This document shows, in pieces, positions 4,357 through 29,276 of a stretch of DNA of 64,000 nucleotides. The notes beneath the pieces were generated by a model, which was given only the letters and a program-made list of their open reading frames with translations, made no database searches and was not told where the DNA came from. Made by a program: the position numbers and the translations under genes. Positions within the stretch are counted from its first letter, which is position 1. The number at the start of each line of letters is the position of its first letter. This DNA comes from Gloeobacterales cyanobacterium (GTDB lineage: Bacteria; Cyanobacteriota; Cyanobacteriia; Gloeobacterales; PMM-0068), in contig JBBRSB010000003.1 in assembly GCA_038245785.1 (NCBI GenBank), forward strand, positions 138,750-202,749, read 5' to 3'.

Positions 4357-4649
4357 ATCCCAGGCGCAAAAAGTATCTTATTGTGCCATGAGCGTTGTGT
4401 TAAAAAATGTATCGTCATGCTTTTGGGACCCATCGGTTCGGATCTAGTTCTGGCAGGCCCGAGCAGCAAGAACTCAAAATTTATCCAAGTTGACCGCAAA
4501 ATTAGTGCTTGAAAATCATAATCGTACTGAGTATGCTTTAGGCACGGATTTGTAATGGCTTCTGAGAATTCTTTGGTTTATATCCGTTAGTAGGTGGTGG
4601 AGAGAAGTGAAGTTAGTGGACACCTAGGAACTCAAAATTATTGGAGGAA

Positions 4650-4849: not shown

Positions 4850-4863
4850 CGCTCAGGGAAGCC

Positions 4864-4889
4864 AAAATTCCCCAATTCTGGGGAATTTT
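4864..4889. repeat. Palindromic hairpin repeat, CCCC-AATTCT-GGGG core (copy 1 of 3)
   Basis: aaaattcccc aattct ggggaatttt forms 10-bp perfect arms (4864-4873 / 4880-4889) around the loop AATTCT. The same core recurs at 17421-17438 and 17501-17516. Confidence 0.8.
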
Positions 4890-5001
4890 GGGCTAGAACC
4901 GCGCTTAGCTTGCTTCCCATTGGCGTTCGCGTAGCGTCTCTGCAAGAGACAGCTTGCCGGAGGCATAGGCACAGGGTGAGTTGGAGGGCAGGGGGGAGGA
5001 C

Positions 5002-11372: not shown

Positions 11373-11637
11373 CCTTGCTTTTCTCCTGATGAAATCTGGA
11401 CTGCAATAAACTTTGAGAGGCACTAAAACAGCCAGTCTTTTAAACTTGATGAGTCAACAAAAATAGTCATCAAATACCGATAGAAATCAGTTTAAAACAC
11501 ATAAATAATGCATTGAGATTCACAGAGTGACTATGCAAAGCAAAACATTCTGTATCATCTTTTTTCATCTGTAGAGCTCAATCACAACTCAGTAACAGTA
11601 GCAATTGAAGTTTAATCAGACTTACAAAGCAGCACAA

Positions 11638-12096: not shown

Positions 12097-14337
12097 ATGA
12101 ATTTTGACTTCCATCGCTATAAGACTTACGGAGGGATCCGCATATCGCGCTCCGTTTCCAAGGTCGATCAAGACACGGCAATTGACCACGTGCGGTCGCA
12201 GCTCAATGTCCAGCGGGGAGCCTTGCTGTCTAGCAGCTATGAGTATCCAGGACGGTATAAGCGCTGGGCAATCGGTTTTATCAACCCGCCTCTGGAGCTG
12301 TCTACGCGCGGAAACACCTTTAAGCTGACGGCCCACAACGAGCGCGGGGCATTACTGCTCCCTTTGTTGGCAGAGCGACTACAGGCGCAGGCGCAAATCC
12401 AGCACGTGCAGAGGGCGCAGTACACGATTGAAGGCGCGATTGTCCCTGTCACAGAACCCTTTGCCGAAGAGGAACGCAGTCAGCAGCCATCCGCGTTCAG
12501 CGTCATTCGCGCGCTGCTGGATTTGTTCGCCAGTCCGGAAGATGAACACTTGGGGCTCTATGGTGCCTTTGGCTATGATTTGGTCTTTCAATTTGAACCG
12601 ATTCAACAAGCGCTGCAACGTCCAGCGGATCAGCGCGACTTGGTACTGTACCTACCCGATGAGCTAATCGTTGTCGACTACTACCTGCAGCAGACTTTAC
12701 GCTACACCTATGATTTTGAGACTGCCCATGGCAGCACCTCTGGTTTGGCGCGCACGGGCGAGGTGATCGACTACCGAGGCACCAGTGTTATCGATCAGCA
12801 AAGCGTGCCCTCGACACCTTCGACACCCGTATCTGGAGCCTATGCTGCCCAAGTTGAAGAAGCCAAGAAGTATTTCTGTCGGGGCGACCTCTTCGAAGTC
12901 GTGCTCAGTCAACAATTCTCCACTGCTTGTCAAGCATCCCCCGTCCAACTCTTCCAGACGCTTCAGCAAATCAACCCCAGCCCCTATGGTTTTCTACTCA
13001 ACCTCGGCGGTGAGTATCTGATTGGAGCCTCGCCTGAGATGTTTGTGCGCGTGGAAGGCAAGCGCGTGGAGACCTGCCCGATTAGCGGCACGATTCTGCG
13101 CGGGCAAGACGCCATGGGAGATGCCGAGCAAATTCGTCAGCTGCTCAACTCCTATAAGGACGAGACGGAACTAACGATGTGTACGGATGTCGACCGCAAC
13201 GACAAATCGCGCGTCTGTATTCCTGGCAGCGTGAAGGTGATTGGTCGTCGTCAAATTGAGCTATACAGCCATGTGATTCACACGGTCGATCATGTGGAAG
13301 GCATTCTGCGACCGGAATTTGATGCCCTGGATGCTTTTTTGTCCCATACCTGGGCCGTCACGGTCACAGGTGCTCCGAAGCGGGCGGCGATGCAGTTTAT
13401 CGAACGTCATGAAGACAGTGCGCGGCGATGGTATGGCGGTGCCGTCGGACGCCTTACGTTTAATGGCGATATGAATACGGGCTTAACGCTGCGCACCATC
13501 CGCTTTCAGAATGCGGTCGCAGAAGTTCGGGTCGGTGCTACTCTACTCTACGATTCCGTTCCCGAGGATGAAGCGCAAGAGACCTTGACCAAGGCAGCAG
13601 CTTTATTTGAGACCTTGAATAAAGCTGCCACCGGGGCTTTCGTTCCGCCAAAAGTCCGTCGAGGCGTTCCCATCGCAAGCAGTGAGGCGCAAGCCAGAGC
13701 CAGTTCAGGCAAGCGCGTTCTTTTGATTGACTACGAGGATTCTTTTGTCCATACCCTGGCGAATTACATCCGCCAAACCGGGGCGACGGTCACTACTTTA
13801 CGTCATGGTTTCTCCGTAGAGACCTTTGAGCGTGAACGTCCCGATCTAGTTGTGCTCTCTCCAGGACCGGGCAGACCGAACGACTTTCATGTTCCGCAAA
13901 CGGTCCGAGATTGCATCCAGCGGCAAATCCCTCTATTTGGCGTGTGCCTAGGTCTGCAGGGAATTGTCGAAGCCTTGGGTGGAACGCTGGGCGTTCTGAA
14001 CCCACCGCAGCACGGCAAGTCCTCTGAATTAAGGGTTACGGACCAAGAGTCTGCCCTGTTCCAAGGATTGCCTGAAGTATTTCCAATCGGGCGCTACCAC
14101 TCGCTCTATGCCCTGCCTGAGCGGCTCCCTGGGGATCTTAAGGTCACGGCGCTATCTCAGGACAACGTAATCATGGCCGTTGAGCATCGTCATCTACCAA
14201 TTGCGGCAGTGCAGTTCCATCCTGAATCGATCATGACTTTAGCCGGAGATGTGGGTTTGGCCATTATCCAGAACGTGCTCCAGACCTATGCCACAGCGTC
14301 TACGACCATAGAGGCAAGGCCAACTCCTGTGCGCTGA
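12097..14337 (+). CDS. trpE: Fused anthranilate synthase, components I and II (TrpE-TrpG)
   Basis: 746 aa. The N-terminal ~520 aa is a chorismate-binding TrpE (…GASPEMFVRV…, …TGAPKRAAMQFIE…). The C-terminal ~200 aa is a glutamine amidotransferase (…LFGVCLGLQGIVEA…, …AAVQFHPESI…). Confidence 0.9.
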   Translation: MNFDFHRYKTYGGIRISRSVSKVDQDTAIDHVRSQLNVQRGALLSSSYEYPGRYKRWAIGFINPPLELSTRGNTFKLTAHNERGALLLPLLAERLQAQAQIQHVQRAQYTIEGAIVPVTEPFAEEERSQQPSAFSVIRALLDLFASPEDEHLGLYGAFGYDLVFQFEPIQQALQRPADQRDLVLYLPDELIVVDYYLQQTLRYTYDFETAHGSTSGLARTGEVIDYRGTSVIDQQSVPSTPSTPVSGAYAAQVEEAKKYFCRGDLFEVVLSQQFSTACQASPVQLFQTLQQINPSPYGFLLNLGGEYLIGASPEMFVRVEGKRVETCPISGTILRGQDAMGDAEQIRQLLNSYKDETELTMCTDVDRNDKSRVCIPGSVKVIGRRQIELYSHVIHTVDHVEGILRPEFDALDAFLSHTWAVTVTGAPKRAAMQFIERHEDSARRWYGGAVGRLTFNGDMNTGLTLRTIRFQNAVAEVRVGATLLYDSVPEDEAQETLTKAAALFETLNKAATGAFVPPKVRRGVPIASSEAQARASSGKRVLLIDYEDSFVHTLANYIRQTGATVTTLRHGFSVETFERERPDLVVLSPGPGRPNDFHVPQTVRDCIQRQIPLFGVCLGLQGIVEALGGTLGVLNPPQHGKSSELRVTDQESALFQGLPEVFPIGRYHSLYALPERLPGDLKVTALSQDNVIMAVEHRHLPIAAVQFHPESIMTLAGDVGLAIIQNVLQTYATASTTIEARPTPVR

Positions 14338-14425
14338 GTTTAATAAGTCCTCTGTCTCTGAAAGAAAGAGCGCTCTAATCTTCTTCCCGTCATCCTCCTT
14401 CCTCTCTCCTTGCTGAGGTGCAGCC

Positions 14426-15277
14426 ATGCCCATTCCTTCCATGCCTACAACCAGCGCAGCGCCCCAGATCCTGAAAACCATCGTGCGCCATAAACGAGAG
14501 GAGGTTCAGCAACAGCAGGCTCAACTTCCTCTCGTTCAGCTGCAGCAAGTAAGCAGTACGCCCAGAGGCAAAATCAGCTTTCTCAACGCGCTGCAAAACA
14601 GCCAGCGTTCGCCCAGCTTGATTGCTGAGGTTAAAAAAGCATCCCCTAGTAAAGGCTTAATTCGTGACGATTTTGATCCCGTAGCCATCGCTCAGGCCTA
14701 TGAGCGCGCCGGGGCTGCCTGCATTTCGGTCCTGACCGATCAGCAGTTCTTTCAGGGTAGCTTTGACGATTTGCAGGCGGTGCGTCAGCAGGTGTCTCTG
14801 CCGCTGCTATGCAAAGAGTTTGTAGTGGATGCTTATCAGATTTACAAAGCGCGAGCAGCAGGAGCCGATGCGGTGCTGCTGATTGCAGCCGTCTTGTCGG
14901 ACCAAGAACTGCGAGACTTCCTGCGGCTGGCTCATGACTTGGGTATGGAAGCGTTGGTGGAGGTACATACCCTGGCAGAGCTTGAGCGGGTTATTCCCCT
15001 GCCAGAAATAGCTTTAATCGGTATCAACAACCGCAATCTGAACGATTTTACGGTTGACCTGGGTACCACCCGGCAGTTGATGACTGCCTACCGCCAGCAA
15101 TTCAGCGATCTGGGGATCGTCACGGTCAGCGAGTCGGGATTGCATACGGTTGCCGACCTCGCCTTCGTCACGGCTATGGGTGTCCGGGCCGTGCTCATCG
15201 GTGAAGCGCTGCTCAAACAACCCGACGTAGAGCGAGCTATCCGCAACTTGTTCTATACCCAACTTGATAACGGTTAA
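14426..15277 (+). CDS. trpC: Indole-3-glycerol-phosphate synthase
   Basis: 283 aa with [29 protein letters not shown] and GINNRNL motifs. Confidence 0.9.
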
Positions 15278-15296
15278 CCCTTACGGTCTCACTTCT

Positions 15297-16142
15297 ATGA
15301 CAACCACCACAGCGCACTCCCTAACCATTACTCAAGGATTCCAGGCACTCCGTGAGCGCCAGCACTGCGCCCTGATTCCGTTTATTACGGCAGGAGATCC
15401 TGATCTGGCAACAACGGCGGCGGCTCTGCAAATCCTCGATCGCAACGGGGCTGACTTTATTGAACTAGGGGTCCCTTATTCTGATCCTTTGGCCGACGGT
15501 CCCGTGATTCAAGCGGCGGCTACGCGGGCGCTACAGCGAGGCACCCGTCTAGAGTCTGTGCTCGGGATGCTCAAGTCCATTGGCCCCCGGTTAAAAGCGC
15601 CGATTATTCTCTTCACCTACTACAACCCAATCTTGAATTGCGGTGTTGCAACATTTCTGCAGAGAATCGCTGAGGTAGGCGTGAAAGGATTGGTGGTGCC
15701 TGATTTACCGATTGAGGAGGCCGCCGAACTGCTGAGGCTGGCAACTGATTTGGGTATTGAAGTCATTCTGCTTGTGGCACCCAACAGCTCAAAAGAGCGC
15801 ATTACTACGATTGCGCAGCAGTCTCAGGGCTTTATCTATCTCGTCAGCGTGACGGGGGTGACGGGAACACGCTCAAGCATCGAATCTCGTGTAGAAACGC
15901 TACTGCAAAATCTGCGGAGCATTACCGATAAGCCGATTGGGGTAGGCTTTGGAATTTCCAGCCCAGACCAGGCACGTCAGGCGCGCGTCTGGGGAGCAGA
16001 TGCCGTGATTGTGGGCAGTGCCTTCGTCAAGCACCTGGCGTCAGACTCTCCAACGGAAGGATTGCAGGCTATAGCCACGCTCTGTCGTGATTTGAAAGCG
16101 GCCATCGGTAATGAGAGCGCCAAGAGTCTATCGAAAACATAA
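15297..16142 (+). CDS. trpA: Tryptophan synthase alpha chain
   Basis: ORF 15264..16142 trimmed to ATG 15297. Motifs [30 protein letters not shown] and VGFGIS are present. Confidence 0.9.
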
Positions 16143-16168
16143 ATGACCCAATTCGGGAGGATCTTACC

Positions 16169-17410
16169 TTGACCAGTATTCTAACTAACAGTACGCACCC
16201 AACCGCTCAGACTCAACGTCCTGATGCCCTCGGTCGATTCGGACCGTTTGGCGGCAAATACGTCCCAGAGACGCTGATGCCTGCCCTGGCCGAACTTGAA
16301 GACGCCGTTCAGCAATGCCGCGCCGACGCTACTTTTCAAGCAGAACTGCATCAGCTTCTACATGACTATGTGGGCCGACCCAGCCCGCTCTATTTTGCCG
16401 AACGCCTAACGGCGCACTACGCCCGCCCTGATGGCACAGGCCCGCAAATCTATCTCAAACGAGAGGACCTAAATCATACGGGGGCGCACAAAATTAATAA
16501 CGCCGTCGCCCAAGCGCTGCTGGCAAAGCGGATGGGAAAACAGCGCGTCATTGCTGAAACGGGAGCAGGCCAACATGGGGTTGCAACGGCAACCGCCTGT
16601 GCTCGTTTTGGACTCAGCTGCGTGATTTACATGGGCATCCACGACATGAAGCGACAGGAGCTGAACGTGTTTCGGATGCGCTTGCTCGGGGCGGAAGTAC
16701 GACCTGTTGAGGCCGGTACCGGTACGCTCAAGGATGCAACCTCCGAAGCGATCCGCGATTGGGTCACAAACGTGGAAACGACTCACTATATCCTCGGGTC
16801 GGTAGCAGGGCCTCATCCTTACCCGATGATTGTGCGTGACTTTCATGCCGTGATTGGGAAAGAAACCCGTGTTCAATGCCAGGAGCATTGGGGAGGACTG
16901 CCGGATATTCTGCTGGCCTGCGTCGGCGGCGGCTCAAATGCGATCGGCCTGTTTCATGAGTTCATCGACGAACCGACCGTGCGGCTGATCGGGGTAGAAG
17001 CAGCGGGAGAGGGCATCGACACGCAGAAGCACGCTGCCACCTTGACCCTGGGACGCGTCGGCGTACTGCACGGAGCGATGAGCTACCTGCTGCAAGATGA
17101 AGACGGTCAAATCATCGAACCCCATTCAATTAGCGCTGGACTCGACTATCCCGGTGTCGGGCCAGAGCATAGCTATCTCAAGGACGCACGCCGCGCCGAA
17201 TATTACAGCGTTACGGATACTCAGGCACTCGCTGCTTTCCAGCAGCTTGCGCAACTTGAAGGCATCATTCCAGCGTTAGAAACTGCCCATGCCGTCGCCT
17301 ATTTGGAAACGCTCTGCCCTCAGATGAGAGACAGTCCTCGGATTGTGCTCAACTGCTCTGGGCGAGGCGATAAGGATGTGCAAACCGTGATTAACACGCT
17401 GGATCTCTAA
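16169..17410 (+). CDS. trpB: Tryptophan synthase beta chain
   Basis: 413 aa with [25 protein letters not shown] and GGGSNAIG. The apparent start is TTG at 16169, with GGGAGG 8 nt upstream. The nearby ATG 16143 is in another frame and terminates after 9 codons. Confidence 0.9.
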
Positions 17411-17420
17411 AGCCCCCCGG

Positions 17421-17438
17421 CCCCCCAATTCTGGGGGG
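17421..17438. repeat. Palindromic hairpin repeat CCCCCC-AATTCT-GGGGGG (copy 2 of 3)
   Basis: It begins 11 nt after the trpB stop and is followed by gagaagcatcc. It may act as an intra-operon terminator or processing hairpin. Confidence 0.75.
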
Positions 17439-17500
17439 AGAAGCATCCTTCGCTTCAGACCCTATTTTCAATTCTTCGAACGGCCAACGGCATACAAAGC

Positions 17501-17516
17501 CCCCCAATTCTGGGGG
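17501..17516. repeat. Palindromic hairpin repeat CCCCC-AATTCT-GGGGG (copy 3 of 3)
   Basis: This is the second copy in the trpB/DAHP-synthase spacer. It is followed by atttggggggcaagcatctcc, so both spacer copies are trailed by AAGCATC. Confidence 0.75.
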
Positions 17517-17577
17517 ATTTGGGGGGCAAGCATCTCCATATGCTCCAAAATCAACAACCTAACAGAGGATAAAAGTC

Positions 17578-18642
17578 ATGATCATAGTCGTAAAGACAGG
17601 GGCACCAGAGGCTGAAATTACCCGTATTGGAAAAGACCTGTACCGTGAGTATGGCGTTACTTCTGAAAAGCTCGCTGGACAGAGCAAGGTCGTCATTGGC
17701 CTGATTGGTGAAACAGCTACGCTCAATCGTCAGCAAATACAGGCCATCAGTCCCTGGATTGAGCAAGTTTTACGGATCGAGCAACCATTCAAGCGCGTAA
17801 GCCGAGAATATCGACAGGGCATAGCGAGTGAAGTCGTGGTTTCTACGCCAAATGGCCCCGTTGCTTTCGGAGAGCAGCATCCACTGGTGCTAACCGCTGG
17901 CCCTTGCTCCGTTGAAAACGAGGCGATGATTGTAGAAACGGCAAAGCGTGTCAAAGCGGCAGGGGCACAATTTTTGCGTGGTGGAGCCTTTAAGCCTCGC
18001 TCATCACCCTACGCCTTCCAAGGCCATGGCGAAAGTGCTTTAGAATTGCTGGCGGCAGCCCGTAGCGCTACCGGGCTGGGAATTATCACCGAACTGATGG
18101 ACGCTGCGGATCTGGAACAGGTGGCAGCCGTGGCTGATGTGATCCAAATCGGTGCCCGCAATATGCAAAATTTCTCGCTGCTCAAGAAGGTGGGTGCTCA
18201 AGATAAGCCTGTGCTGCTCAAGCGTGGTCCATCGGCCAACATTGATGAGTGGCTCCTAGCAGCGGAGTATCTGCTCGCTGCCGGAAATCCGAATGTGATT
18301 CTCTGTGAGCGCGGCATTCGCACGTTTGATTCTAAATACGCACGCAATACTTTAGATTTATCAGTTATTCCCGTGCTCAGGCTGTTGACCCATCTGCCGA
18401 TCATGATTGATCCGAGTCATGGCACAGGGCGCTCCCAGTATGTCCCGGCGATGGCGATGGCAGCCATCGCTGCTGGTACCGATGCTTTGATGATCGAAGT
18501 CCATCCCGACCCCGCAAAAGCGCTCTCCGATGGCCCACAGTCGCTGACTCCTCAGCAATTTGATGAGCTCACCGTACAAATGGCGGTGATTAGCAAAGCT
18601 GTGGGGCGCTGGTCACAGCCTGCTGTTGCCGCAATCGCCTAA
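17578..18642 (+). CDS. aroG: 3-deoxy-7-phosphoheptulonate (DAHP) synthase, type I-beta with N-terminal regulatory domain
   Basis: 354 aa. A ~75-aa ACT/ferredoxin-like N-terminal domain (MIIVVKTGAPEAEI...) precedes the KDSA/DAHPS I-beta core (AGPCSVENE, FLRGGAFKPRSSPY, IGARNMQNF, DPSHGTG). Confidence 0.85.
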   Translation: MIIVVKTGAPEAEITRIGKDLYREYGVTSEKLAGQSKVVIGLIGETATLNRQQIQAISPWIEQVLRIEQPFKRVSREYRQGIASEVVVSTPNGPVAFGEQHPLVLTAGPCSVENEAMIVETAKRVKAAGAQFLRGGAFKPRSSPYAFQGHGESALELLAAARSATGLGIITELMDAADLEQVAAVADVIQIGARNMQNFSLLKKVGAQDKPVLLKRGPSANIDEWLLAAEYLLAAGNPNVILCERGIRTFDSKYARNTLDLSVIPVLRLLTHLPIMIDPSHGTGRSQYVPAMAMAAIAAGTDALMIEVHPDPAKALSDGPQSLTPQQFDELTVQMAVISKAVGRWSQPAVAAIA

Positions 18643-18673
18643 TCTGCCATCTGTTTCACAGGAGCGCACAAGG

Positions 18674-19777
18674 ATGAAGACCCTGCAACAGCTTGACCAT
18701 GACTTGATTCAATTACTGAATCAGCGAGCTGCCCTTCTAGGAAAAGCGTATGATTCCAGTTTGCCTGCTGAAACCTCTCAACACTTGGCCCAGACGGGTT
18801 TACCGGAGTTTGTCTGGGAAAGTCTCGCCACCTGTTGCGCAGCAGCAACAACAGTGGCCCCAGCCGCATTGAGTTCTCCTAAGCAGATCACTATCATTGG
18901 CGGTGCGGGACAGATGGGCCGCTTTTTTACTCGGCAGTTTGCTGCCGCTGGTCATAGCGTCCGGCAACTAAGGCGACATGACTGGGAGAAGGCCGATCAG
19001 TACTTGAGTGATGCAGACTTAGTCCTTGTCTCTGTGCCGATGCAACAAACAGTAGAAGTAATTCAGCGGGCGTCACCCTACCTATCGCCAACATCGGCCA
19101 TTGCAGATGTCAACAGCCTCAAAGCGCCCGTTGTCAAAGCGATGTTAGAACATCACCCTGGCCCGGTGCTCGGAATGCATCCAATGTTTGGGCCAGGGCT
19201 ATCATCGTTCCTCGCGCAGAATGTGGTGGTTTGCCCAGGGCGGGACCTGAGAGCCTTCAAATGGCTACTGGATTTAATCCGCAGTCAAGGAGGAAAACTG
19301 CTGGTCTGCGCGCCAGAAGAACACGACCGGATGATGGTGACGGTTCAGGCTATCCGCCATTTCTCTGCCTTTGGCCTGGGAGTCTTCCTCGCAGAAGCGG
19401 GCATCGACCTTGACCGGAGCTTGGACTTTTCCAGTGCTCCCTATCGCCTACAGCTCAATTTAGTCAGTCGGTTATTCGCTCAGGATGCCGCGTTGCCTCT
19501 AGATCTGATGCTGAGTTCACCAGATCATCGTCAAGCTATTTGCACCTTAGCAGACACCTACAGCCGCCTCGCCCAGTTGATTGTACAAGAGGATCAAGCC
19601 ACCCTGGAGCAAGCGTTTGAGTCCACTAAACAGGTTTTTCAAATGCACGTTCCTCAAGCCCACCAGGAAAGCCAACATATCGTTCAAAGCCTAAGCGTAC
19701 ACTTGGCAGCCAACAGCAAAATGCCCCTTGCATTGCCTAAAGCGGGTGAAGGGCCGAGGGCTAAGCTTCTCAGATAA
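18674..19777 (+). CDS. tyrA: Prephenate/arogenate dehydrogenase TyrA with a short chorismate-mutase-like N-terminal helix
   Basis: ORF 18626..19777 trimmed to ATG 18674 (MKTLQQLDHDLIQLLNQRAALLGKAY). It has the Rossmann motif ITIIGGAGQMGRFF and the TyrA core ...VLGMHPMFGP.... Confidence 0.8.
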   Translation: MKTLQQLDHDLIQLLNQRAALLGKAYDSSLPAETSQHLAQTGLPEFVWESLATCCAAATTVAPAALSSPKQITIIGGAGQMGRFFTRQFAAAGHSVRQLRRHDWEKADQYLSDADLVLVSVPMQQTVEVIQRASPYLSPTSAIADVNSLKAPVVKAMLEHHPGPVLGMHPMFGPGLSSFLAQNVVVCPGRDLRAFKWLLDLIRSQGGKLLVCAPEEHDRMMVTVQAIRHFSAFGLGVFLAEAGIDLDRSLDFSSAPYRLQLNLVSRLFAQDAALPLDLMLSSPDHRQAICTLADTYSRLAQLIVQEDQATLEQAFESTKQVFQMHVPQAHQESQHIVQSLSVHLAANSKMPLALPKAGEGPRAKLLR

Positions 19778-19783
19778 ACAGGC

Positions 19784-19912
19784 ATGGGCAGCACTTTTGG
19801 ACATTTGTTTCGGGTATCTACCTTTGGAAAGTCTCACGGCGACGAGGTGGGGGCGATTGTCGAAGGCTGTCCACCCTGTAGACGAACTCTTCAATTTGCG
19901 ACCAAGAGCTGA
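19784..19912 (+). pseudogene. aroC: Chorismate synthase (aroC) 5' remnant
   Basis: ATG 19784 opens [31 protein letters not shown], the hallmark AroC N-terminus (G-x-x-F-G-x-x-F-R-x-[ST]-T-F-G-E-S-H-G). Similarity ends after ~31 codons, and the frame stops at 19910-19912 inside the 3' end of the convergent regulator gene. Confidence 0.65.
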
Positions 19913-20688
19913 TGTTCCTTGCGCCAAACTTGAGGAGGAATGCCATGGTACTGGAGGAACTGCCGGAAGAAGTGGCGGGAATTGACGTACCCGACCGTTC
20001 GTGCTACTTGTTCGACGGACTGATCACTATTCTCAAGGATTTGGCGTGCCTCGGCCATGCGTCGCTCAATAATCCAACGAGCAACCGTGCGTCCTGTTTG
20101 CCTGCCTACCAGTGTTGTCAGATAAGCAGGCGAATAGCCAGCAGCCTGAGCCACATCAGATAGCGTAATGGGCAAATGGTAATTTGCCTCAATAAAGTCG
20201 AAGACTGCCTGGAGTTGCGTACTCGTGGGAAAGAGTGACTTGGAAGTTCCTGACGCTGTAAGGACGCTCACAGCCTGTTTTCCTAAGCCCATTTCACTAA
20301 CTTGAATATCTTGACGAGCGACTTGTTTTTTCAATTGAGCCGAGATTGCTTCCAGCAATTGAGCGACGGTTAAGGGTTTGATTAGATAGCTGTCTTTGTC
20401 CACATCCATGTCTGGCAGAAACTTTGGACCAATTACACCACTGGTGATGAATATAAATGGAATAGTGGCTGTCGCCGGAAGCTTGCGCAGCCTAGTCAAT
20501 ACATCATGCCCATCTAGCTCTGGCATCCAGGTATTGCAGATGATTACATCGGGTAAACGCCGTTGCGCTTGATGGATACCGATAGCACCATTTTCCGCCC
20601 CAATCGCGTGAAAACCCTCGGTCTTTAAACAGACGGTGAAAAGATTTCGCGTACATTCATCGGCTTCTATGACTAAAACTTTTTTCAT
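19891..20688 (-). CDS. Response regulator: CheY-like receiver + AraC-type HTH (scytonemin-associated type); Asn at the predicted phospho-acceptor position
   Basis: 265 aa. The receiver reads [11 protein letters not shown]...[16 protein letters not shown]...FIFITS...YLIKP. The C-terminal AraC HTH reads [24 protein letters not shown]...[13 protein letters not shown]. The codon at 20533-20535 (AAT on the minus strand) occupies the position normally held by the phosphorylated Asp. Confidence 0.85.
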
Positions 20689-20790
20689 ATGCTTCCTGTT
20701 GCGAGGATTAAAAATTCACTACAAGCATTTGAAATGTTGGGCATGATTGGCAGCAGCTAACATGCCAATCCCGTTGTCTAAAATCCAATT

Positions 20791-22023
20791 TCAGTTGATC
20801 GCTAGTCGGATAGTCACTACCGTTCCAACACCAATCTGACTAACCCAATCAATTTCCCCACCGTGCATATCTACAAGATTTTTAGCAATGGACAGTCCCA
20901 GCCCAAGTCCTGGAACTTTTTCAATGTTGCTACCCCGAAAAAAAGGCTCAAATAGATGTTCCTGATCGACTTCTGACATTCCAATGCCAAAATCCTGAAT
21001 TTGGATACTGACCAACTGATTATGGCAAGCAAGATTAAAGTAAATAGTGCTGCCCATGGGTGAATACTTGATTGCATTATCAAGTACATTCTCCAGCGCT
21101 ATATAAAACAGCTCTGGGTCGAAGTTGAACATCAACCTGTCTTCTAGCAAGCCATTGGATTGGCATTCAAACTCAATTGTCTGTTGACTATCAGCAATCG
21201 CTGCCTGCTTCTCAGCGATTAAATCACGGCAGAAGCCAACTATGTCTAGAGATTTTGTATTTGGTTCCAGTTTCCGAGCAGCTGATTCGCTAAGGAGTGA
21301 AATTTTATCTAAAAGTTGAACAATTTGATCGACCGCAGATTGAATATGCATCAGATAGGGCTGAGTTTGTGCTGCTGTCCATTGATTTAGATTGCGGTCT
21401 AGTAAGCTGTTTGAGAAGGAAATAACATTGAGTAAGGAACGGAATTGGTGGCAGATAGCAGTATTCGGGTCGTTGATCTGCTCTGGCTCTCCGAGCGCTT
21501 GTCCCTCTGTACTGTCTAGCGGTAGCACTTTTTGTAAGTGTTTAAACTTCGTGATGTCCCACACATTCCAGACCCGACCAATGACTTTACGGCCCAACCG
21601 TTGCGGAGAAGCACTGTGCATAAAGAGCCTGCCATCCTGCAACTCTAGGACATCAGAGCTATCTGTCTCCAATTGGGTGGAAGCTTCCCAGATGGCGTTG
21701 CGGAAGACTTCTGGATTTTTGACTTGGTTCTCAAAAAAAGCTCTCGCTCGATCGCAGTCCCGTGACAACTCTACTGAATCTGGAAGCTGCCACATTTCTG
21801 CAAATTGGTGATTGAAGTAGAAAGCTTTAGCATCACTGTCCATCGCAAGAATGCCAATATCAGTGGATGCAACCCTTGCCCGTAGTAAGGCTAAAGTTCT
21901 CTCCAGGTCCGCTTCAGTCCTATCCACCCTGGGAGTTTCTTGAGATAAAACCATCACGGTGGCCACTGAATCAGATTGAGAACGCTCTTGTTCAAAGCGC
22001 TTGTGGTCGCGGTGAGAAGACAT
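20791..22023 (-). CDS. PAS-domain sensor histidine kinase
   Basis: 410 aa with a PAS-like region (GILAMDSDAKAFYFNHQFAEMWQL...). It has the H-box ICHQFRSLLNVI, the N-box LENVLDNAIKYS, G1 IQDFGIGM and G2 GLGLGLSIAKN. It lies immediately upstream of, and co-directional with, the regulator. Confidence 0.85.
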   Translation of the reverse strand: MSSHRDHKRFEQERSQSDSVATVMVLSQETPRVDRTEADLERTLALLRARVASTDIGILAMDSDAKAFYFNHQFAEMWQLPDSVELSRDCDRARAFFENQVKNPEVFRNAIWEASTQLETDSSDVLELQDGRLFMHSASPQRLGRKVIGRVWNVWDITKFKHLQKVLPLDSTEGQALGEPEQINDPNTAICHQFRSLLNVISFSNSLLDRNLNQWTAAQTQPYLMHIQSAVDQIVQLLDKISLLSESAARKLEPNTKSLDIVGFCRDLIAEKQAAIADSQQTIEFECQSNGLLEDRLMFNFDPELFYIALENVLDNAIKYSPMGSTIYFNLACHNQLVSIQIQDFGIGMSEVDQEHLFEPFFRGSNIEKVPGLGLGLSIAKNLVDMHGGEIDWVSQIGVGTVVTIRLAIN

Positions 22024-22839
22024 AGTTCATCCTTTCTGGTTTTGTTGAGAGGAGGCTATAAACACAGGAATTCTTCGCGTCCTGTGTCCATGCCGCTAAA
22101 GCCAATAGATTAACTACTAATGCCGACAGGGCATGTGACACATCCAATGAAGTACGTGTCACCTTAAATTTATATTTGTTTTCAATAGTTAACACACGAT
22201 TTCAGTTTCGCTAGGTATCGCCTGCCACATCTTAGAAAATTTTATATTTTGTTTAGGACTAGAAAGTTTGAGCATTCCATGGGAATCCATTAGACTATTT
22301 CTTAATGCTGTCCATCAAATAATTTTATTATTCGAGGCTTGATTATTGAGCCTTATAGTGGTACACGTAAAAATGTTCAGTGGGCAAACCAGGAAAGAAA
22401 CAGCATGTGTTAGTGAATACAGCGCCAAGAAATCATATCTGAGTGGAATTTGGGCTGCAAGACTACTGAGGCCATGTGTGAGTTTTATCGCATTTATTTC
22501 CTATTTAATCAGCTATATATTCCTATATGCCTATAGAATAGGGTCGCCTTAAAAGATTTTCTGTCATAGGATTAATGGATTGCTAGAAAAGTTATAATCT
22601 TAAAAAAGCGCAGGATTAATATCAACAATCTGTTGATCCTACTAGATAGGATAGGGTATCCATATGTGATGTCGTATCATTAGACAAAACCTAACTATTG
22701 TTTGATATGTTGTTGAGATAGGGCCGAAAGATGAGGATACGACACCTTCTCAGCCGCTAGCAAATTAGGGTTAAAGAGGGCTGGGGGCTGATAGCCTCTG
22801 TAATTATAATTATTGCTTTCATATTTTTAAGGGGAGATT

Positions 22840-23766
22840 ATGCTTATTTTTTCTACTGAGGTCCATGAGGATACCCGTGGGATTCGGGATTTGCTGCAAC
22901 ACTGGTTATCTTCACAACTCTCGCCTGAGGCCCTTGTCTGGCTGAAGACTGCCATCTCGCAATCGTGCCAAGCATTTTCAGAGCAGACTTTTTTCACTGC
23001 TTTCAGCACCCTGCCACGCCGAGTGGGAAAACACGATCTGGCGCTTACTAGTGCTGAATTAGCGCAGGCCGATAACCTGTGTCCAGGCTGGTATCCCAAG
23101 GCATGGAGCGTTGACCAGGCGGCGCGTGCGCTGCTCTTGCTCAGTCTGCCCCAGGCAGAGACGGGCTCGATGAACGAGCTCTTTGAGAAACTGTACGCTA
23201 CTGCTGGCATGGCAGAAGCGGTGGCACTGCACCAGACTTTGCCCCTGCTAGGTCATGGTGAACGCTATGAATACTGGGCCTTAGAGGGAGTTCGGAGTCA
23301 CATCACGGCTGTCTTTAATGCGGTTGCACTCTGGAACCCCTATCCGGCTCGTCAATTTGATCAGGCAACCTGGAATCAACTGGTGTTGAAGGCCATTTTT
23401 GTAGGTAGTCCCTTGTACCCCATCTGGGGACTGGATGCTCGAGCGAATCCTGAACTAGCGCGGATGCTGATCGACTATGTTCATGAGCGATGGGCAGCCC
23501 ATCGGGAAGTGACGCCGGAACTATGGCGCTTGCTAGCCCCGTTTATTGATCAGATCGACCAGGCGGTGCTACTCGATTTAGCACGAGCCCTAAAGTCAGC
23601 GAACGAGACTCAACGCCAAGCGGTGGGTTTGGCCTGTGTTCAATCGGCGCTTCCGAGCGCTCTAGACTTACTTCAAGTGCATCCCGACTTGAACAGATTA
23701 ATTCAGGCAGGAACGCTAACTTGGGAGAGCATTTACCGTAACCAGCTGCAAATCAGTGCAAGCTGA
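22840..23766 (+). CDS. eboA: EboA-like protein (first gene of the ebo cluster)
   Basis: 308-aa helical protein with no enzymatic motif I recognise. It is called from its position directly upstream of the TatD / UbiA / DHQS-like / TIM-barrel / phosphodiesterase gene series. Confidence 0.6.
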   Translation: MLIFSTEVHEDTRGIRDLLQHWLSSQLSPEALVWLKTAISQSCQAFSEQTFFTAFSTLPRRVGKHDLALTSAELAQADNLCPGWYPKAWSVDQAARALLLLSLPQAETGSMNELFEKLYATAGMAEAVALHQTLPLLGHGERYEYWALEGVRSHITAVFNAVALWNPYPARQFDQATWNQLVLKAIFVGSPLYPIWGLDARANPELARMLIDYVHERWAAHREVTPELWRLLAPFIDQIDQAVLLDLARALKSANETQRQAVGLACVQSALPSALDLLQVHPDLNRLIQAGTLTWESIYRNQLQISAS

Positions 23767-23778
23767 CGGTCCTGCTTA

Positions 23779-23821
23779 TCGAAAAAATGGACGCTTTGTC
23801 GAAAACATGTCGAAAAAATGG
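23779..23821. promoter_or_regulatory. Three direct copies of TCGAAAA(A/C)ATG(G) in the eboA-eboB spacer
   Basis: tcgaaaaaatgg at 23779-23790, tcgaaaacatg at 23799-23809 and tcgaaaaaatgg at 23810-23821. They lie in a 230-bp gap inside an otherwise tightly packed cluster. Confidence 0.35.
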
Positions 23822-23996
23822 TCCTTGCACTGTCTTTGAAGTCTTATTAAGCTCTGGCTTAGGGAAATAAGGCAAAAGCTCAACAGCTCTGACCCTATAC
23901 ACAGGTTCTTAGGAGCTTGCAGGTGACAAAGGCTGGTTTTGCCTGTTCTTTTCCCAATTTAGGCGCATAGTTCCTCGCACTTATTCAGGTCATCCC

Positions 23997-24935
23997 ATGC
24001 CAGATAGCGCTCCTCCCATCTCCCGGCCCAAGATCTGGATTGATCCACACATCCATATGACGTCCCGTACGACCTATGACTACCGTTTGATGAGGCAGCA
24101 AGGAATCGTGGCTGTTATTGAGCCGTCCTTTTGGCTGGGGCAGCCTCGCACCAACGTCGGGACATTTCAGGACTACTTCAGCAGTCTGGTGGGCTGGGAA
24201 CGCTTCCGAGCCGGACAGTTTGGCATTCGCCACTACTGCACCATCTGCCTCAACCCAAAGGAAGCGAATAATCCTGCGATTGCCGATGAGGTAATGGCCA
24301 TGCTTCCTCTCTATCTATGCAAGGAGGGCGTTGTGGCCGTTGGTGAAATTGGCTACGACTCGATGACAGCGGCAGAGGACAAGTATTTCAGACTGCACTT
24401 AGAGATGGCAAAGGAATTCAAAAAGCCTGTCCTGGTCCACACGCCCCATCGGAACAAGAAGGAAGGAACCTTGCGCAGCTTAGAAGTCTGCCTGGAGCAT
24501 GGCATCGATCCAAAGCTGGTAGTGATAGACCATGCCAACGAAGAGACTGTCCAGGCCATTCTCGATCGAGGCTTTTGGGCAGCGTTTTCGATCTATCCAA
24601 AGACCAAGATGGGCAATGAACGAATGACTGAAATTGTTCGGCAGTATGGTTCCGAGCGAATCATCGTCAATAGTGCAGCCGACTGGGGAATCAGCGACCC
24701 TCTGGCTGTACCGAAAACGGCTCAACTGATGCTGGAGCGAGGGATTCCTGAGGCCGATGTGACGGCAGTCTGCTATGGCAACGCGCTGGCAGCCTATAGC
24801 CAAAGCGGTGAAATGAGCGAAGCGGACTGGCTCAGTCCAGAACCCGTGGACCAACGGCAGCTTTTCGATGGCAACTCAGTGCTTCGGGGCCAGGAACCGA
24901 TAACACAAGAAGCAGAGTCGCTCGTTATTGTCTAA
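23997..24935 (+). CDS. eboB: EboB, TatD-family metal-dependent hydrolase
   Basis: 312 aa with WIDPHIHMTSRT (HxH metal site), VAVGEIGYD, VLVHTPH and VIDHAN, which are typical TatD-like amidohydrolase-fold motifs. Confidence 0.8.
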   Translation: MPDSAPPISRPKIWIDPHIHMTSRTTYDYRLMRQQGIVAVIEPSFWLGQPRTNVGTFQDYFSSLVGWERFRAGQFGIRHYCTICLNPKEANNPAIADEVMAMLPLYLCKEGVVAVGEIGYDSMTAAEDKYFRLHLEMAKEFKKPVLVHTPHRNKKEGTLRSLEVCLEHGIDPKLVVIDHANEETVQAILDRGFWAAFSIYPKTKMGNERMTEIVRQYGSERIIVNSAADWGISDPLAVPKTAQLMLERGIPEADVTAVCYGNALAAYSQSGEMSEADWLSPEPVDQRQLFDGNSVLRGQEPITQEAESLVIV

Positions 24936-25013
24936 GGTTGGTGTTTTGAACTTCTGAGCTAGAAAGAGGTGCTATGACCGCGCCCAATTCCGAATTGCAT
25001 CAGAGGGAAGCAG

Positions 25014-25925
25014 ATGATTTCAGCGCAGAGTACGACAAACCGCTTGGTGGCCTATCTTCAGATGATGCGTCCTGCCAATATTGTGACGGCGTGGGCAGAT
25101 ATTCTGGCAGGCTATGCGGCAGCGGGTTTAGGAGCTATTACTCCTGACCCTACGGCTATCTACCCCTTGCTCTGGCTGCTGTTAGCCACAACCGGGCTGT
25201 ACGGAGGCGGGGTTGTATTCAACGACGTGTTCGACGCCAAGCTGGATGCCCAAGAGCGTCCCGAGCGTCCGATTCCCAGTGGCCGCAGTTCGGTGCAAGA
25301 AGGCATCGTTCTGGGCATCGGTTTACTGACCCTTGGCATTGTGGCAGCGGCCCAGGTATCAGCGATCAGTGCGGGGATAGCAGTCGCGATTGCCCTGGCA
25401 GCGCTGCTATACGATTCCGTGGGTAAACACCACGCTCTGATAGGCCCCCTGAATATGGGGCTGTGTCGGGGTGGAAACCTGTTGCTGGGCGTGAGCGCCG
25501 TGCCTGTAATGCTCCAAGAGCGCTGGTTTTTGGCAGCGATTCCGGTCTTATACATTGCGGCGATTACGCTGATCAGTCGCGGTGAAGTGCATGGTGGAAA
25601 TCGAATGGCTGGACAAGTTTCTCTGGTGGCCTTGGCCCTGGTGTGCGCCGGGTTAATTGGGCTAAGCCTGTTGCCCAGCTATGGACTACTGCCGATGCTG
25701 CCCTTCGGGGTGTTTTGGGGAATATCGGTGATTCCAGCCTTTGTCAAAGCTAGCCGTGAACCCAGTGCTGCCCTAATTCGCCATGCAGTCCGCTCGGGAG
25801 TAATCTCCCTGATCGTCCTCAATAGTGCCCTTGCAGCAGGCTTCAGCCACTGGCTTTATGGTTTAGCGGTTTTAAGCTTGTTGCCCCTATCTCGATTTTT
25901 AGCTAAACAATTTGCGGTGACCTAG
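25014..25925 (+). CDS. eboC: EboC, UbiA-family prenyltransferase
   Basis: 303 aa and polytopic. The motif NDVFDAKLDAQERPERPIPSG is the UbiA Asp-rich motif (NDxxDxxxD). Confidence 0.85.
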   Translation: MISAQSTTNRLVAYLQMMRPANIVTAWADILAGYAAAGLGAITPDPTAIYPLLWLLLATTGLYGGGVVFNDVFDAKLDAQERPERPIPSGRSSVQEGIVLGIGLLTLGIVAAAQVSAISAGIAVAIALAALLYDSVGKHHALIGPLNMGLCRGGNLLLGVSAVPVMLQERWFLAAIPVLYIAAITLISRGEVHGGNRMAGQVSLVALALVCAGLIGLSLLPSYGLLPMLPFGVFWGISVIPAFVKASREPSAALIRHAVRSGVISLIVLNSALAAGFSHWLYGLAVLSLLPLSRFLAKQFAVT

Positions 25926-27134
25926 ATGTATCTCAGCCTGAGCAGTCCGCCCCAGTTCCTAGAATCAACATTGAAACCGCTGCAGCAGTCTATAACGGTT
26001 CGGTTTGACTATTCAGTGCACTTCACCCATGGCCTGTTTCAGTTACACAATCCCCTGCTGGCAGAGATATTAGCGGCTGAGCAGACAACGCAACCAGCTG
26101 CCGTACTGGTCATTATCGACGGCGGTCTCCTATCATCCCAACCGCAACTACTAGAGAAAGTAACAGCCTACGCTGAGCATTACCAACAGGCGATTTGCCT
26201 CAAAGCCGTGCCCTTGGTCGTAGTCGGGGGAGAGGCAGCCAAGAACGATCCAGCCTGTGTGGAGCAGATTCAGCGACTGATCAGTGAGGCCCGCTTATGC
26301 CGGCATTCCTATGTCGTGGTGATTGGGGGTGGAGCTGTTTTAGATATGGTCGGTTATGCTGCAGCCACTGCCCATCGCGGAGTGCGTCTTATCCGAGTGC
26401 CAACGACAGTACTGGCCCAAGATGACTCTGGAATCGGCGTAAAAAATGGGGTTAATGCCTTTGGCAAGAAGAATTTCCTAGGTACGTTTGCTCCACCCTA
26501 TGCCGTTATTAATGACGCGGACTTTCTGCGAACGCTGGGTCAGCGGGATTGGATAGCCGGAGTAATAGAAGCGCTTAAAGTAGCGTTGATTAAAGATGCG
26601 GACTTTTTTCAGTACATCGAGGCCAACACAAACGCCTTGGTCAAGCGTGAACTGTCGGTCATGCAACAGGTCATCTATCGCTCTTGCCAACATCACTTGC
26701 ATCATATCGGCAGCTATGGCGACCCGTTTGAAATGGGTTCATCGCGCCCCCTCGACTTTGGGCACTGGGCCGCCCATCGCCTGGAGCATTTGACGAACTA
26801 TCGTCTCCGACATGGCGAAGCAGTAGCGATCGGTATTGCCCTCGATAGCACCTATGCCTGCTTTGCCGGACTGCTGCCAGCAGAAGACTGGACCCGGATC
26901 TTAAATGCATTGCAGGCACTGGGATTTGCACTTTATGCGCCGGAATTGGGCGCATTTTCAGAACAACCAGAGCATCCGCAGTCGATTTTTCAGGGGCTGA
27001 CTGAATTTCGAGAACATCTAGGCGGAGCGTTAACCCTAATGCTATTGGCTGGTATAGGCACTGGGGTGGAAGTGCATCAAATCAACCTGGAACTATATCA
27101 ACAGGCGATTACCTATTTGAAAGCACTGAAATGA
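25926..27134 (+). CDS. eboD: EboD, 3-dehydroquinate-synthase-like sugar phosphate cyclase
   Basis: 402 aa with VIGGGAVLDMVGYAAATAHRGVRLIRVPTTVLAQDDSGIGVKNGVN and HGEAVAIG. Its ATG abuts the eboC stop. Confidence 0.85.
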   Translation: MYLSLSSPPQFLESTLKPLQQSITVRFDYSVHFTHGLFQLHNPLLAEILAAEQTTQPAAVLVIIDGGLLSSQPQLLEKVTAYAEHYQQAICLKAVPLVVVGGEAAKNDPACVEQIQRLISEARLCRHSYVVVIGGGAVLDMVGYAAATAHRGVRLIRVPTTVLAQDDSGIGVKNGVNAFGKKNFLGTFAPPYAVINDADFLRTLGQRDWIAGVIEALKVALIKDADFFQYIEANTNALVKRELSVMQQVIYRSCQHHLHHIGSYGDPFEMGSSRPLDFGHWAAHRLEHLTNYRLRHGEAVAIGIALDSTYACFAGLLPAEDWTRILNALQALGFALYAPELGAFSEQPEHPQSIFQGLTEFREHLGGALTLMLLAGIGTGVEVHQINLELYQQAITYLKALK

Positions 27135-27669
27135 AGACCTAGCACAGGCAGGAGACCTCATGAGCGCTAACGACCGATTTCATCTCACTTACTGCACAAA
27201 CACCGATTCCGGCGAGACGTGGCAAGCGGTTTGGACCAATCTGCAGCGACCTATGCCCGGGCTAAAGCAATCACCATCACCGGACCAACCCTTTGGCATT
27301 GGCTTGCGCTTAGCGAATCTGGCCAGTCAAGAACTTCTGGTCAATAGACGGCTTACTGACCTCAAAGCGCGGCTGGCGGCAGAAAAGATCTATGCTTTCA
27401 CCCTGAATAGTTCTCCCTATGGCAGCTCCCATCATCACGTGAGAAGAGATCAGGTCTATAAACCGGATTGGAGCACAGTAGGACGGCTCTTACACACGAG
27501 GCGATTGGCACGGATTCGAGCAAAGCTGCTACTGGACGGAACGGAGAGCCATATTTCCAACCTACCGCATTCCTGCAAGCCCTGGTTTTTCGGCATCCCA
27601 GAAGCGCGGGCTCTGGTATTTCAGTCGAGTACTGTGGCCCTCACGACCTTAGTCATGAATCTGGTCAAT
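26862..27669 (+). repeat. Tandem duplication unit, copy 1 (eboD 3' end + spacer + diverged eboE-like 5' part)
   Basis: It begins at tttgccggactgctgccagc (26862) and ends at ...atgaatctggtcaat (27669). It is colinear with 27670-28489. Confidence 0.85.
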
Positions 27670-27990
27670 TTTGCTGGACTGCTGCCAGTGGAAGACTGGG
27701 TGCGGATCTTGAAAGCATTGCAGGCACTGGGATTTACGCTACACGTGCCAAAATTGGGCGCATTTTCAGAAGAACCAGAGCGTCTGCAGTCGGTTTTCCA
27801 AGGGCTGACTGAATTTCGAGAACATCGAGGGGGAAAGTTAGCCCTAAGGCTATTGGCCGGTATCAGCGCTGGGGTGGAAGTGCATCAAATCAACCTGGCC
27901 CTGTATCAGCAGACGATTGCCTGTTTGCAAGTACTGGACCAGAGACCTCTAGAGTTTCCAGCACAGCGCAGGAGATCTCATGCGTATTAA
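27160..27990 (+). CDS. Chimeric ORF: diverged EboE N-terminal ~170 aa fused to a diverged EboD C-terminal ~90 aa
   Basis: 276 aa. Residues 1-170 (MSANDRFHLTYCTNTDSGETWQAVWTNLQ...) parallel EboE 1-170 (MRINDRFHLTYCTNTHPGETWQAVWTNLQ...). From FAGLLPVEDWVRILKALQALGF... it parallels the EboD C-terminus (FAGLLPAEDWTRILNALQALGF...VEVHQINLELYQQAI). It keeps an AGGAG Shine-Dalgarno sequence. It may be a duplication by-product (pseudogene) or a retained gene. Confidence 0.6.
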   Translation: MSANDRFHLTYCTNTDSGETWQAVWTNLQRPMPGLKQSPSPDQPFGIGLRLANLASQELLVNRRLTDLKARLAAEKIYAFTLNSSPYGSSHHHVRRDQVYKPDWSTVGRLLHTRRLARIRAKLLLDGTESHISNLPHSCKPWFFGIPEARALVFQSSTVALTTLVMNLVNFAGLLPVEDWVRILKALQALGFTLHVPKLGAFSEEPERLQSVFQGLTEFREHRGGKLALRLLAGISAGVEVHQINLALYQQTIACLQVLDQRPLEFPAQRRRSHAY

Positions 27991-28489
27991 CGACCGATTT
28001 CATCTTACCTACTGCACAAACACTCATCCTGGCGAGACGTGGCAAGCGGTTTGGACCAATCTTCAGCAATATTTGCCTGGGCTGAAGCAGTCGCTATCAC
28101 CGGATCAACCGTTTGGTATTGGCTTGCGCTTAGCAGATCTGGCCAGTCGAGAACTTTTGGTGGGCGACCGACTGGCGAAGCTTAAAGCGTGGCTGGAGAC
28201 AGAGAATCTCTATGTCTTTACCCTGAATGGTTTTCCCTACGGCAGTTTCCATCACCAAGTCATAAAAGACCAGGTCTATGCTCCAGATTGGACCACGGTC
28301 GAGCGGCTAGAGTACACAAGGCGATTGGTAAAAGTTCTAGCAGAGCTGCTGCCGGAAGGGATGGAAGGCAGTATTTCCACCCTACCGCTCTCCTACAAGC
28401 CTTGGTTTTTCGGTACGCCAGAAGCGCTGGATCCCGTATTTCAGTCGAGTGCCGTTGCCCTCGCGGCCTTAGTGATAGATCTGGTCAAT
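27670..28489 (+). repeat. Tandem duplication unit, copy 2 (diverged eboD 3'-like part + spacer + authentic eboE 5' part)
   Basis: It begins at tttgctggactgctgccagt (27670) and ends at ...atagatctggtcaat (28489). The unit is ~12 bp longer than copy 1 because of indels around the former eboD stop and spacer. Confidence 0.85.
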
Positions 28490-29227: not shown

Positions 29228-29276
29228 TCCGTCACAGCCAATCTACACCTAACCTTTTCACCCAAGCTCCTAACCG

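Follow-up and report, generated by a model that had tools for sequence, protein, structure and literature searches.

A probably functional aspartate-less receiver in the positional orthologue of the scytonemin regulator of an apparently early-branching cyanobacterial lineage

Aspartate-less receivers (ALRs), in which the phospho-acceptor Asp of the receiver (REC) domain is absent, account for a few percent of receivers overall. Common substitutes in this class include Asn (16%) and Ser (15%), and the second acidic residue of the active site is kept in only 29% (PMC4395418). Among 20 characterised bacterial atypical regulators, CmrT of Clostridioides difficile and FrzS of Myxococcus xanthus are the only ones that are not orphans, and a 2025 review calls the switching of bacterial pseudo-receivers "a mystery" (PMC12632262). 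The scytonemin regulator is conserved in scytonemin clusters (PMC2726228), and, as an earlier note on the DNA analysed here had stated, the Nostoc orthologue is required for scytonemin: the passage of PMC9127174 that cites Naurin 2016 describes it as essential for scytonemin production, for N. punctiforme only. A full-text literature search returned no paper linking scytonemin regulation with pseudo-receivers. Here we describe a response regulator gene (19891..20688, minus strand; 265 residues) in a 64,000-nucleotide stretch of cyanobacterial DNA (contig JBBRSB010000003.1), hereafter the window; it was delineated from its open reading frame (ORF), Pfam matches, an AlphaFold2 model and Foldseek. 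We consider it probable that the product of this gene is a working aspartate-less receiver joined to an AraC-type helix-turn-helix (HTH) domain, and that, within a distinct and apparently early-branching cyanobacterial lineage, it represents the positional orthologue of the scytonemin two-component regulator.

The phospho-acceptor position of the regulator is occupied by Asn52 (codon AAT, 20533..20535, minus strand). In HMMER alignments to solved receivers this residue faces the acceptor Asp of both 12aw_A ('IPDLIISDVMMPVMDG') and 3t6k_A ('LPDALICDVLLPGIDG'), and the minus-strand DNA around the codon reads GAT GTA ATC ATC TGC AAT ACC TGG ATG CCA. The alignments agree with the earlier note in placing Asn, and no Asp, in the acceptor column, a column in which 94 of 120 homologues carry Asp. 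That note had also listed the other receiver landmarks as kept. This holds for Thr82 (20443..20445, minus strand) and for Lys104-Pro105 (20374..20379, minus strand), which align with the conserved receiver Thr/Ser and Lys and are found, as Thr and Lys, in 15 and 16 of the 18 members of the clade described below. It does not hold for the acidic motif 'EADE': in the sequence 'VIEADE', Glu8 is the first acidic residue and Ala9 (codon GCC, 20662..20664, minus strand) replaces the second, the main Mg2+ ligand, where canonical relatives read 'IEDD' or 'IEDE', 12aw 'VEDN' and 3t6k 'VDDD'. Of the five catalytic receiver residues two, the second acidic residue and the acceptor Asp, are absent; Thr/Ser and Lys are as in canonical receivers, and the acidic pair is incomplete. 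With Asn52 in place of the acceptor Asp and Ala9 in place of the Mg-binding one, canonical phosphotransfer chemistry is predicted to be unavailable to this receiver; judged from its sequence, the protein is an aspartate-less receiver, or pseudo-receiver, by the definitions of PMC4395418 and PMC12632262.

The Asp-less state is shared by a whole clade. We compared the best 120 homologues of the regulator, and its 18 nearest protein clusters (65-100% identity) all lack the acceptor Asp, with Asn in 7, Ser in 10 and Cys in 1. Ala9 is present in 16 of these 18; the residue at position 9 is Asp in 38/38 canonical scytonemin-linked regulators. Homologues at or below 58% identity to the regulator show the canonical pattern (E-D ... 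C-D ... T ... K). The 18 Asp-less sequences are monophyletic, and the Asn subclade and the Ser/Cys subclade are each recovered as well, all three with a bootstrap of 100/100; the tree places the loss of Asp in the ancestor of the whole clade. Codon 52 is AAT in the window and in the relative L081, whose regulator is 89% identical, AGC in L083, and AGT in L085 and L087, and the acceptor codon probably followed the path D(GAT) -> N(AAT) -> S(AGT). Clade-member loci (L081, L083, L085, L087 and L092) were retrieved individually. The set of named genomes contains, among the matches listed, at least 39 scytonemin-linked kinase/regulator loci (Nostocales, Chroococcus and others) and only canonical relatives, at or below 53% identity to the regulator; 38 of 39 scytonemin-linked regulators in this set have Asp at both sites. 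The comparison with orthologues that the earlier note had proposed gives a divided answer: the acceptor Asp is missing from every member of the clade, although Asn itself is not uniform there, and it is present in nearly all scytonemin-linked regulators outside.

This distribution bears on two explanations that would leave the receiver canonical after all. A sequencing or assembly error at codon 52 had been offered as an alternative in the earlier note, and a single transition does separate AAT from GAT. Such an error is excluded for practical purposes because the Asp-less state recurs across the clade, across codons and across assemblies: AAT is found again in the independently assembled L081, the other relatives carry Asn or Ser (AGT or AGC), the protein clusters with Asn (7) and with Ser or Cys (11) come from many samples, and the loss of Asp9 co-occurs. 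Alternatively, Asn52 might be deamidated to Asp after translation, which would restore a phosphorylatable receiver. In work cited in the relevant passage of PMC4395418, a receiver with Asn at the acceptor site reverted rapidly to Asp, and here too the proximity of AAT to GAT could be counted in favour. However, the Mg-binding Asp is also gone, the sister subclade, which shares the kinase and the synteny, carries Ser or Cys, neither of which can deamidate, and the residue that follows Asn52 is Thr and not the fast-deamidating Gly; we regard deamidation as very improbable.

Both the regulator and its neighbourhood bear signs of maintenance. Five independently assembled relatives (L081, L083, L085, L087 and L092) share one gene order, consisting of the ebo operon, a divergent short kinase gene, the Asp-less regulator, and convergent aromatic amino-acid genes together with scy genes; their regulators are 67-89% and their kinases (410-431 residues) 56-92% identical to those of the window. 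Pairwise Nei-Gojobori ratios of non-synonymous to synonymous substitution (dN/dS), calculated per region, are 0.11-0.27 for the receiver, 0.37-0.97 for the inter-domain linker and 0.03-0.09 for the HTH domain of the regulator, and 0.07-0.27, 0.03-0.22 and 0.09-0.31 for the PAS, DHp and CA domains of the kinase, respectively. The non-synonymous deficit of the receiver is significant in each reliable pair (p = 3e-4 to 1e-12). Both genes are under purifying selection and are functional by that criterion. Synonymous sites within the clade are saturated (dS above 1), and the Asp-less state has therefore been long maintained.

These data speak against the second alternative of the earlier note, in which the induction circuit is broken in this strain and the regulator, perhaps with the kinase, is a decaying relic. 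Some features do resemble decay: two catalytic residues are missing, constraint on the active-site loops is relaxed, the kinase is shortened with a HisKA match under threshold, and one relative also lacks the kinase His. Nevertheless, the ORFs are full length in all assemblies, the same state is found in at least five independent assemblies, over a range of 67-100% identity, and throughout a clade with saturated synonymous sites, the receiver retains its significant non-synonymous deficit next to an even more constrained HTH domain, and the scy and ebo genes in the window are intact ORFs. Decay is most improbable. The remaining alternative in that note, an atypical receiver that works without phosphorylation, is the one borne out by the clade-fixed loss of the acceptor Asp, the loss of the Mg-binding Asp, purifying selection and conserved synteny, and these lines together make a genuine, functional, non-phosphorylatable receiver well supported.

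In the regulator, PF00072 (Response_reg) matches residues 4-115 (20344..20679, minus strand) with 58.7 bits against a cutoff of 30.2, which places the domain in the receiver family. The C-terminal DNA-binding part (residues 166-257; 19918..20193, minus strand) is matched by PF12833 (HTH_18) with 70.9 bits and by PF00165 (HTH_AraC) with 50.3 bits, the latter in two stretches, as expected of the two HTH motifs of AraC/XylS proteins. In a search of solved structures MarA and RamA match this domain at E = 1e-12, and the top full-length match of the regulator is 12aw_A (HMMER, E = 4e-20, residues 4-258). The AlphaFold2 model (mean predicted local distance difference test score, pLDDT, 75.9) comprises a (beta-alpha)5 receiver, a confident AraC HTH domain (pLDDT 84-94) and a disordered linker at residues 127-149. 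Strands beta1-5 and helices alpha1, 2, 3 and 5 of the receiver are formed, and alpha-4 is a 3-residue turn of low pLDDT. Foldseek matched the model to receiver structures with template modelling (TM) scores of 0.78-0.86, normalised to the target, and to YesN/AraC domains, with a TM of 0.94 for the YesN C-terminal domain. A Shine-Dalgarno-like AGGAAG lies a few bases 5' of the regulator ATG.

Directly upstream of the regulator lies the gene for a sensor histidine kinase of 410 residues (20791..22023, minus strand) with the order PAS - DHp - CA and a HATPase_c match of 84.2 bits. A same-strand spacer of 102 bp without a terminator-like site (20689..20790, minus strand) separates the two genes, and the pair has the arrangement expected of an Npun_F1278 orthologue, a REC and AraC protein beside a kinase gene and scy genes. 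The earlier note had taken the kinase to be intact, and its motifs are indeed all kept: the H box CHQFRSLLN with the phospho-His His192 (codon CAC, 21448..21450, minus strand, by motif reading), Asn316, G1 (D344xGxG), the F box and G2 (G372xGxG). The rest of the protein departs from the canonical form. Its HisKA match of 21.8 bits is under the Pfam cutoff of 26.9 (the canonical scytonemin kinase of L001 reaches 48.5), it has one PAS domain against three in canonical scytonemin kinases of about 650 residues, and its PAS-DHp linker (about residues 162-187, ~25 residues; 21460-21540, minus strand) is Pro-rich and predicted to be non-helical, with pLDDT below 50. The top NCBIfam match is HK_scytonemin, whose score of 400 bits is under the equivalog cutoff of 865; one PAS plus DHp-CA cover only part of the 637 positions of that model. 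Kinase residues 26-192 match the middle PAS of the canonical kinases and residues 156-407 their DHp-CA, and no relics of the missing PAS domains were found in the 816-bp spacer at 22024-22839. The AlphaFold2 model of the kinase, of moderate confidence, assigns residues 56-156 to PAS, 162-187 to a disordered linker, 186-249 to DHp and 257-408 to CA, with His192 only 6 residues into DHp helix 1. Compared with the Ser subclade, kinases of the window subclade lack 4 residues just before the His and ~22 linker residues.

Two apparent peculiarities of the kinase were considered and rejected. The change of T-P to S-L in the H box is not a co-adaptation of the clade, as SLL or SSL also occurs in the canonical-tier kinases P0255-P0259 and P0261 onward, and the Gln, in place of an acidic residue, after the His is not a mark of degeneracy, since it is the norm across all scytonemin kinases. 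As a separate observation, the PAS segment at 21529-21903 (minus strand) has a dS of 0.025 to L081 8786-9160, compared with 0.12-0.30 in the remaining kinase and the regulator, which points to recent recombination or gene conversion over this stretch.

Of the 15 clade kinases, 14 retain the His, N, G1 and G2 motifs. The exception is P0252 of locus L092, a kinase (4001-5236) with Gln (CAG) for the phospho-His and intact N, G1 and G2 motifs, beside a regulator (5348-6142) with Ser52. Both phospho-sites of this pair are lost, both ORFs are full length, and the kinase was found on two contigs. The conserved His in the other kinases could point to a different arrangement, in which the regulator is constitutive or controlled only via its own expression, and the kinase serves a different canonical regulator elsewhere or has some other role; the pseudo-receiver would then at most compete or heterodimerise with the canonical partner, as proposed for CmrT. 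Consistent with this arrangement are the purifying selection on the kinase and the conservation of its His and ATP-binding motifs, the abundance of REC-AraC paralogues in cyanobacterial genomes, several of which gave two or three loci, and the discussion in PMC12632262 of pseudo-receivers that act on other two-component proteins. On the other hand, neither the 64-kb window nor the 20-kb syntenic loci encode a second receiver, the kinase -> regulator pair with its spacer of ~100 bp is strictly conserved, and one clade member has dispensed with the kinase His. We regard this arrangement, the main rival reading, as unlikely.

Constraint within the receiver is distributed differently from that in canonical relatives. 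Sequence entropy in the clade exceeds that in canonical relatives in the beta1-alpha1 loop (0.64 vs 0.06), at the end of beta3 (0.62 vs 0.08) and in the beta3-alpha3 loop (1.56 vs 0.73), and the reverse is seen in helix alpha-1 (0.45 vs 0.93). The former active-site loops are relaxed in the clade, and helix alpha-1, the receiver surface that docks on kinase DHp domains, varies less there than among canonical relatives. Clade-specific fixed changes concentrate in the alpha-4 region (R91L, K92Q and D100S), and the switch residues Thr82, Tyr101 and Lys104 are mostly retained.

How might such a receiver work? It would no longer be a phospho-switch and could serve in allostery, dimerisation or docking; most likely it acts as an allosteric or docking module. 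The co-transcribed PAS kinase may then modulate the regulator by direct binding of DHp to alpha-1, without phosphotransfer, and this binding could depend on the nucleotide or autophosphorylation state of the kinase. We propose the binding model because alpha-1 is conserved, DHp is constrained, the pairing is strict and a His-less relative exists; it is a tentative possibility, with the balance somewhat against it. A fuller scheme holds that the two-component pair gave up phosphotransfer and kept signalling, the kinase binding the pseudo-receiver and its ATP-binding domain acting as a conformational switch and not as a phosphodonor. We consider this scheme rather doubtful; under it, L092, with neither kinase His nor regulator Asp, would represent the end point of the transition away from phosphotransfer.

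Retention of the switch residues is also compatible with a receiver that is switched by other means, namely by phosphorylation of Ser, Thr or Cys, by oxidation of Cys12, Cys20 or Cys51, as in the Asn-bearing redox sensor RitR, or by a ligand. CheY D57N was reportedly found by Appleby and Bourret in 1999 to be phosphorylatable on the adjacent Ser56. Each of the three Cys residues is present in 18/18 clade members, 10 members have Ser and one has Cys at the acceptor position itself, and Thr82, Tyr101 and Lys104 are mostly kept. Such modifications have been raised for aspartate-less receivers (PMC4395418), and RitR is a redox sensor (PMC5965902). However, members of the canonical family all have Cys51 as well, Cys20 is frequent among canonical paralogues, the canonical outgroup P0019 carries Cys12, and the conserved neighbourhood contains no Ser/Thr kinase gene. 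Switching of this kind is quite improbable, and a redox switch formed by Cys12, Cys20 and Cys51 was rejected as a candidate, since none of the three is specific to the Asp-less clade and none tracks the loss of Asp.

Several observations weigh against a functional pseudo-receiver that answers to its neighbouring kinase and controls the cluster. The evolutionary rate of the receiver is 2-9 times that of the HTH domain, so some relaxation of constraint is real, and Lys104 has become Ala in two clade members (P0006 and P0009). The conservation of alpha-1 may stem from intramolecular packing and not from docking on the kinase. The presence of His in 14 of 15 kinases argues that autophosphorylation still matters and leaves room for an acceptor elsewhere in the genome; the 64-kb window encodes no second receiver domain, which says little on the remaining genome. 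Finally, we found no candidate binding motif shared between the regions upstream of scyA and of eboA: the five eboA-kinase intergenic regions have no 10-mer in common, none is shared with the scyA-trpE intergenic region, and the conserved blocks of an alignment of five orthologous eboA-kinase regions (A2) do not recur above chance elsewhere in the window, including upstream of scyA.

The neighbouring genes are those of a scytonemin locus. NCBIfam models identify ScyA (9474-11423), ScyB (8279-9388) and ScyC (7305-8264), all on the minus strand, followed by a fused ORF of 718 residues (5002-7158, minus strand) with a ScyD/ScyE-family part (residues 30-389) and a ScyF part (residues 394-704); the window ORFs scanned include no separate scyD. 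On the plus strand lie trpE with further trp, aroG and tyrA genes (12097-19777) and eboA to eboF (22840-30650), of which EboA and EboC were identified by NCBIfam. We infer that the regulator would still control the scy, ebo and aromatic amino-acid genes, because its HTH domain is strongly constrained, its position is conserved and its Nostoc orthologue is essential (PMC9127174; PMC2726228). The 816-bp intergenic region between the divergent kinase and eboA genes (22024..22839) contains conserved non-coding blocks in alignment A2. One example is AATCGTGTGTTAA at 22189-22201, and such blocks may serve as promoter or operator elements.

The acceptor Asp has been lost repeatedly elsewhere in the REC-AraC family as well. 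It is replaced by Glu in P0023, by Gly in P0025, P0035, P0036 and L055, and by Asn in a paralogue of Nostoc sp. XA010 (L073); P0035 and P0036 are closely related to P0040, which has Asp. The gene context of the Asp-less P0025 and P0035 and of the nearest canonical outgroup, P0019, was confined to short contigs and nothing informative was seen there. One independent loss is itself linked to scytonemin: the REC-AraC regulator of Chroococcidiopsis sp. FACHB-1243 (L059, 9986-10810) has Gly at the acceptor site, a Glu-Glu acidic pair and no Met-Pro, and its gene adjoins scyA on the upstream side and follows a tyrosinase gene. No histidine kinase is encoded in this 20.8-kb locus. Within the clade, L081 of the Asn subclade and L092 of the Ser subclade come from one metagenome, JGI sample 3300081567, in which two diverged lineages with the Asp-less system coexist.

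The window (G+C content 50.4%) also encodes GyrA (41060-43606, minus strand), which shares 71% identity with the Gloeobacter violaceus protein and 68-70% with every other cyanobacterial GyrA sampled. In an unrooted tree of this one marker it groups with Gloeobacter against the other sampled cyanobacteria in 100% of 200 bootstraps, which suggests an uncultured, early-branching Gloeobacter-affiliated lineage; the GyrA relatives P0123 and P0125 do not come from the assemblies of the syntenic loci. Given this grouping, the complete scytonemin and ebo locus seems to sit in a Gloeobacter-affiliated lineage, which bears on the evolutionary history of the sunscreen. If the fuller scheme of signalling without phosphotransfer is true there, control of scytonemin would have been rewired at the cyanobacterial base. 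The sequence UV-A -> kinase -> phospho-regulator should not be assumed in all scytonemin producers. The clade offers a conserved operon of kinase and pseudo-receiver whose presumed output comprises the genes for scytonemin, ebo and aromatic amino acids, and a canonical counterpart, Npun_F1277/F1278, exists in the genetically tractable Nostoc punctiforme. Natural intermediates are at hand as well, namely acceptor variants with Asn, Ser or Cys, one kinase without its His and, in Chroococcidiopsis, a Gly variant that is an orphan. Kinase-to-receiver signalling without phosphotransfer thereby becomes testable by residue swaps and reversions.

Among known systems, the pair most resembles the kinase Npun_F1277 and the regulator Npun_F1278 of N. 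punctiforme and their orthologues in Nostocales, Chroococcus and others. These share the REC plus AraC-HTH architecture, a kinase -> regulator pair adjoining scyABC, ebo and aromatic amino-acid genes, and the kinase H box CHQFR..LN. Among the matches listed, the regulator shares 49-53% identity with the canonical scytonemin systems, and the kinase 41-44%, measured over one PAS and DHp-CA. Unlike the canonical regulators, with Asp at positions 9 and 52, the window regulator has Ala9 and Asn52 and a remodelled alpha-4 region, and unlike the canonical kinase its partner is short, with a single PAS domain and a non-helical linker. The regulator is also like YesN/AraC-family proteins with REC and HTH_18 domains (12aw_A, 3lsg), of which 12aw_A still has an acceptor Asp and an acidic pair.

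In its receiver the regulator is closest in kind to RitR of Streptococcus pneumoniae, which matches PF00072, has Asn at the acceptor site and has likewise lost the second acidic residue. RitR, however, is an orphan with an OmpR-type output under Cys-oxidation control (PMC5965902), whereas the output of the window regulator is of the AraC type and the kinase encoded beside it is conserved. NblR of Synechococcus elongatus is likewise a cyanobacterial stress or light-acclimation regulator that acts without phosphorylation (PMC12632262), but it has an OmpR-type output and no adjacent kinase, and it is related to the window regulator only by the receiver fold. CmrT resembles the window regulator in sharing an operon (CmrRST) with a sensor kinase; that operon also encodes the canonical CmrR, whereas here the pseudo-receiver is the sole regulator beside the kinase, and outputs and biology differ from those of both CmrT and FrzS. 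The largely kept Thr/Tyr/Lys switch residues are typical of aspartate-less receivers (PMC4395418). The regulator is a lineage-fixed member of this known class, and what is less usual about it is that a co-located kinase has been kept with no canonical regulator in the operon.

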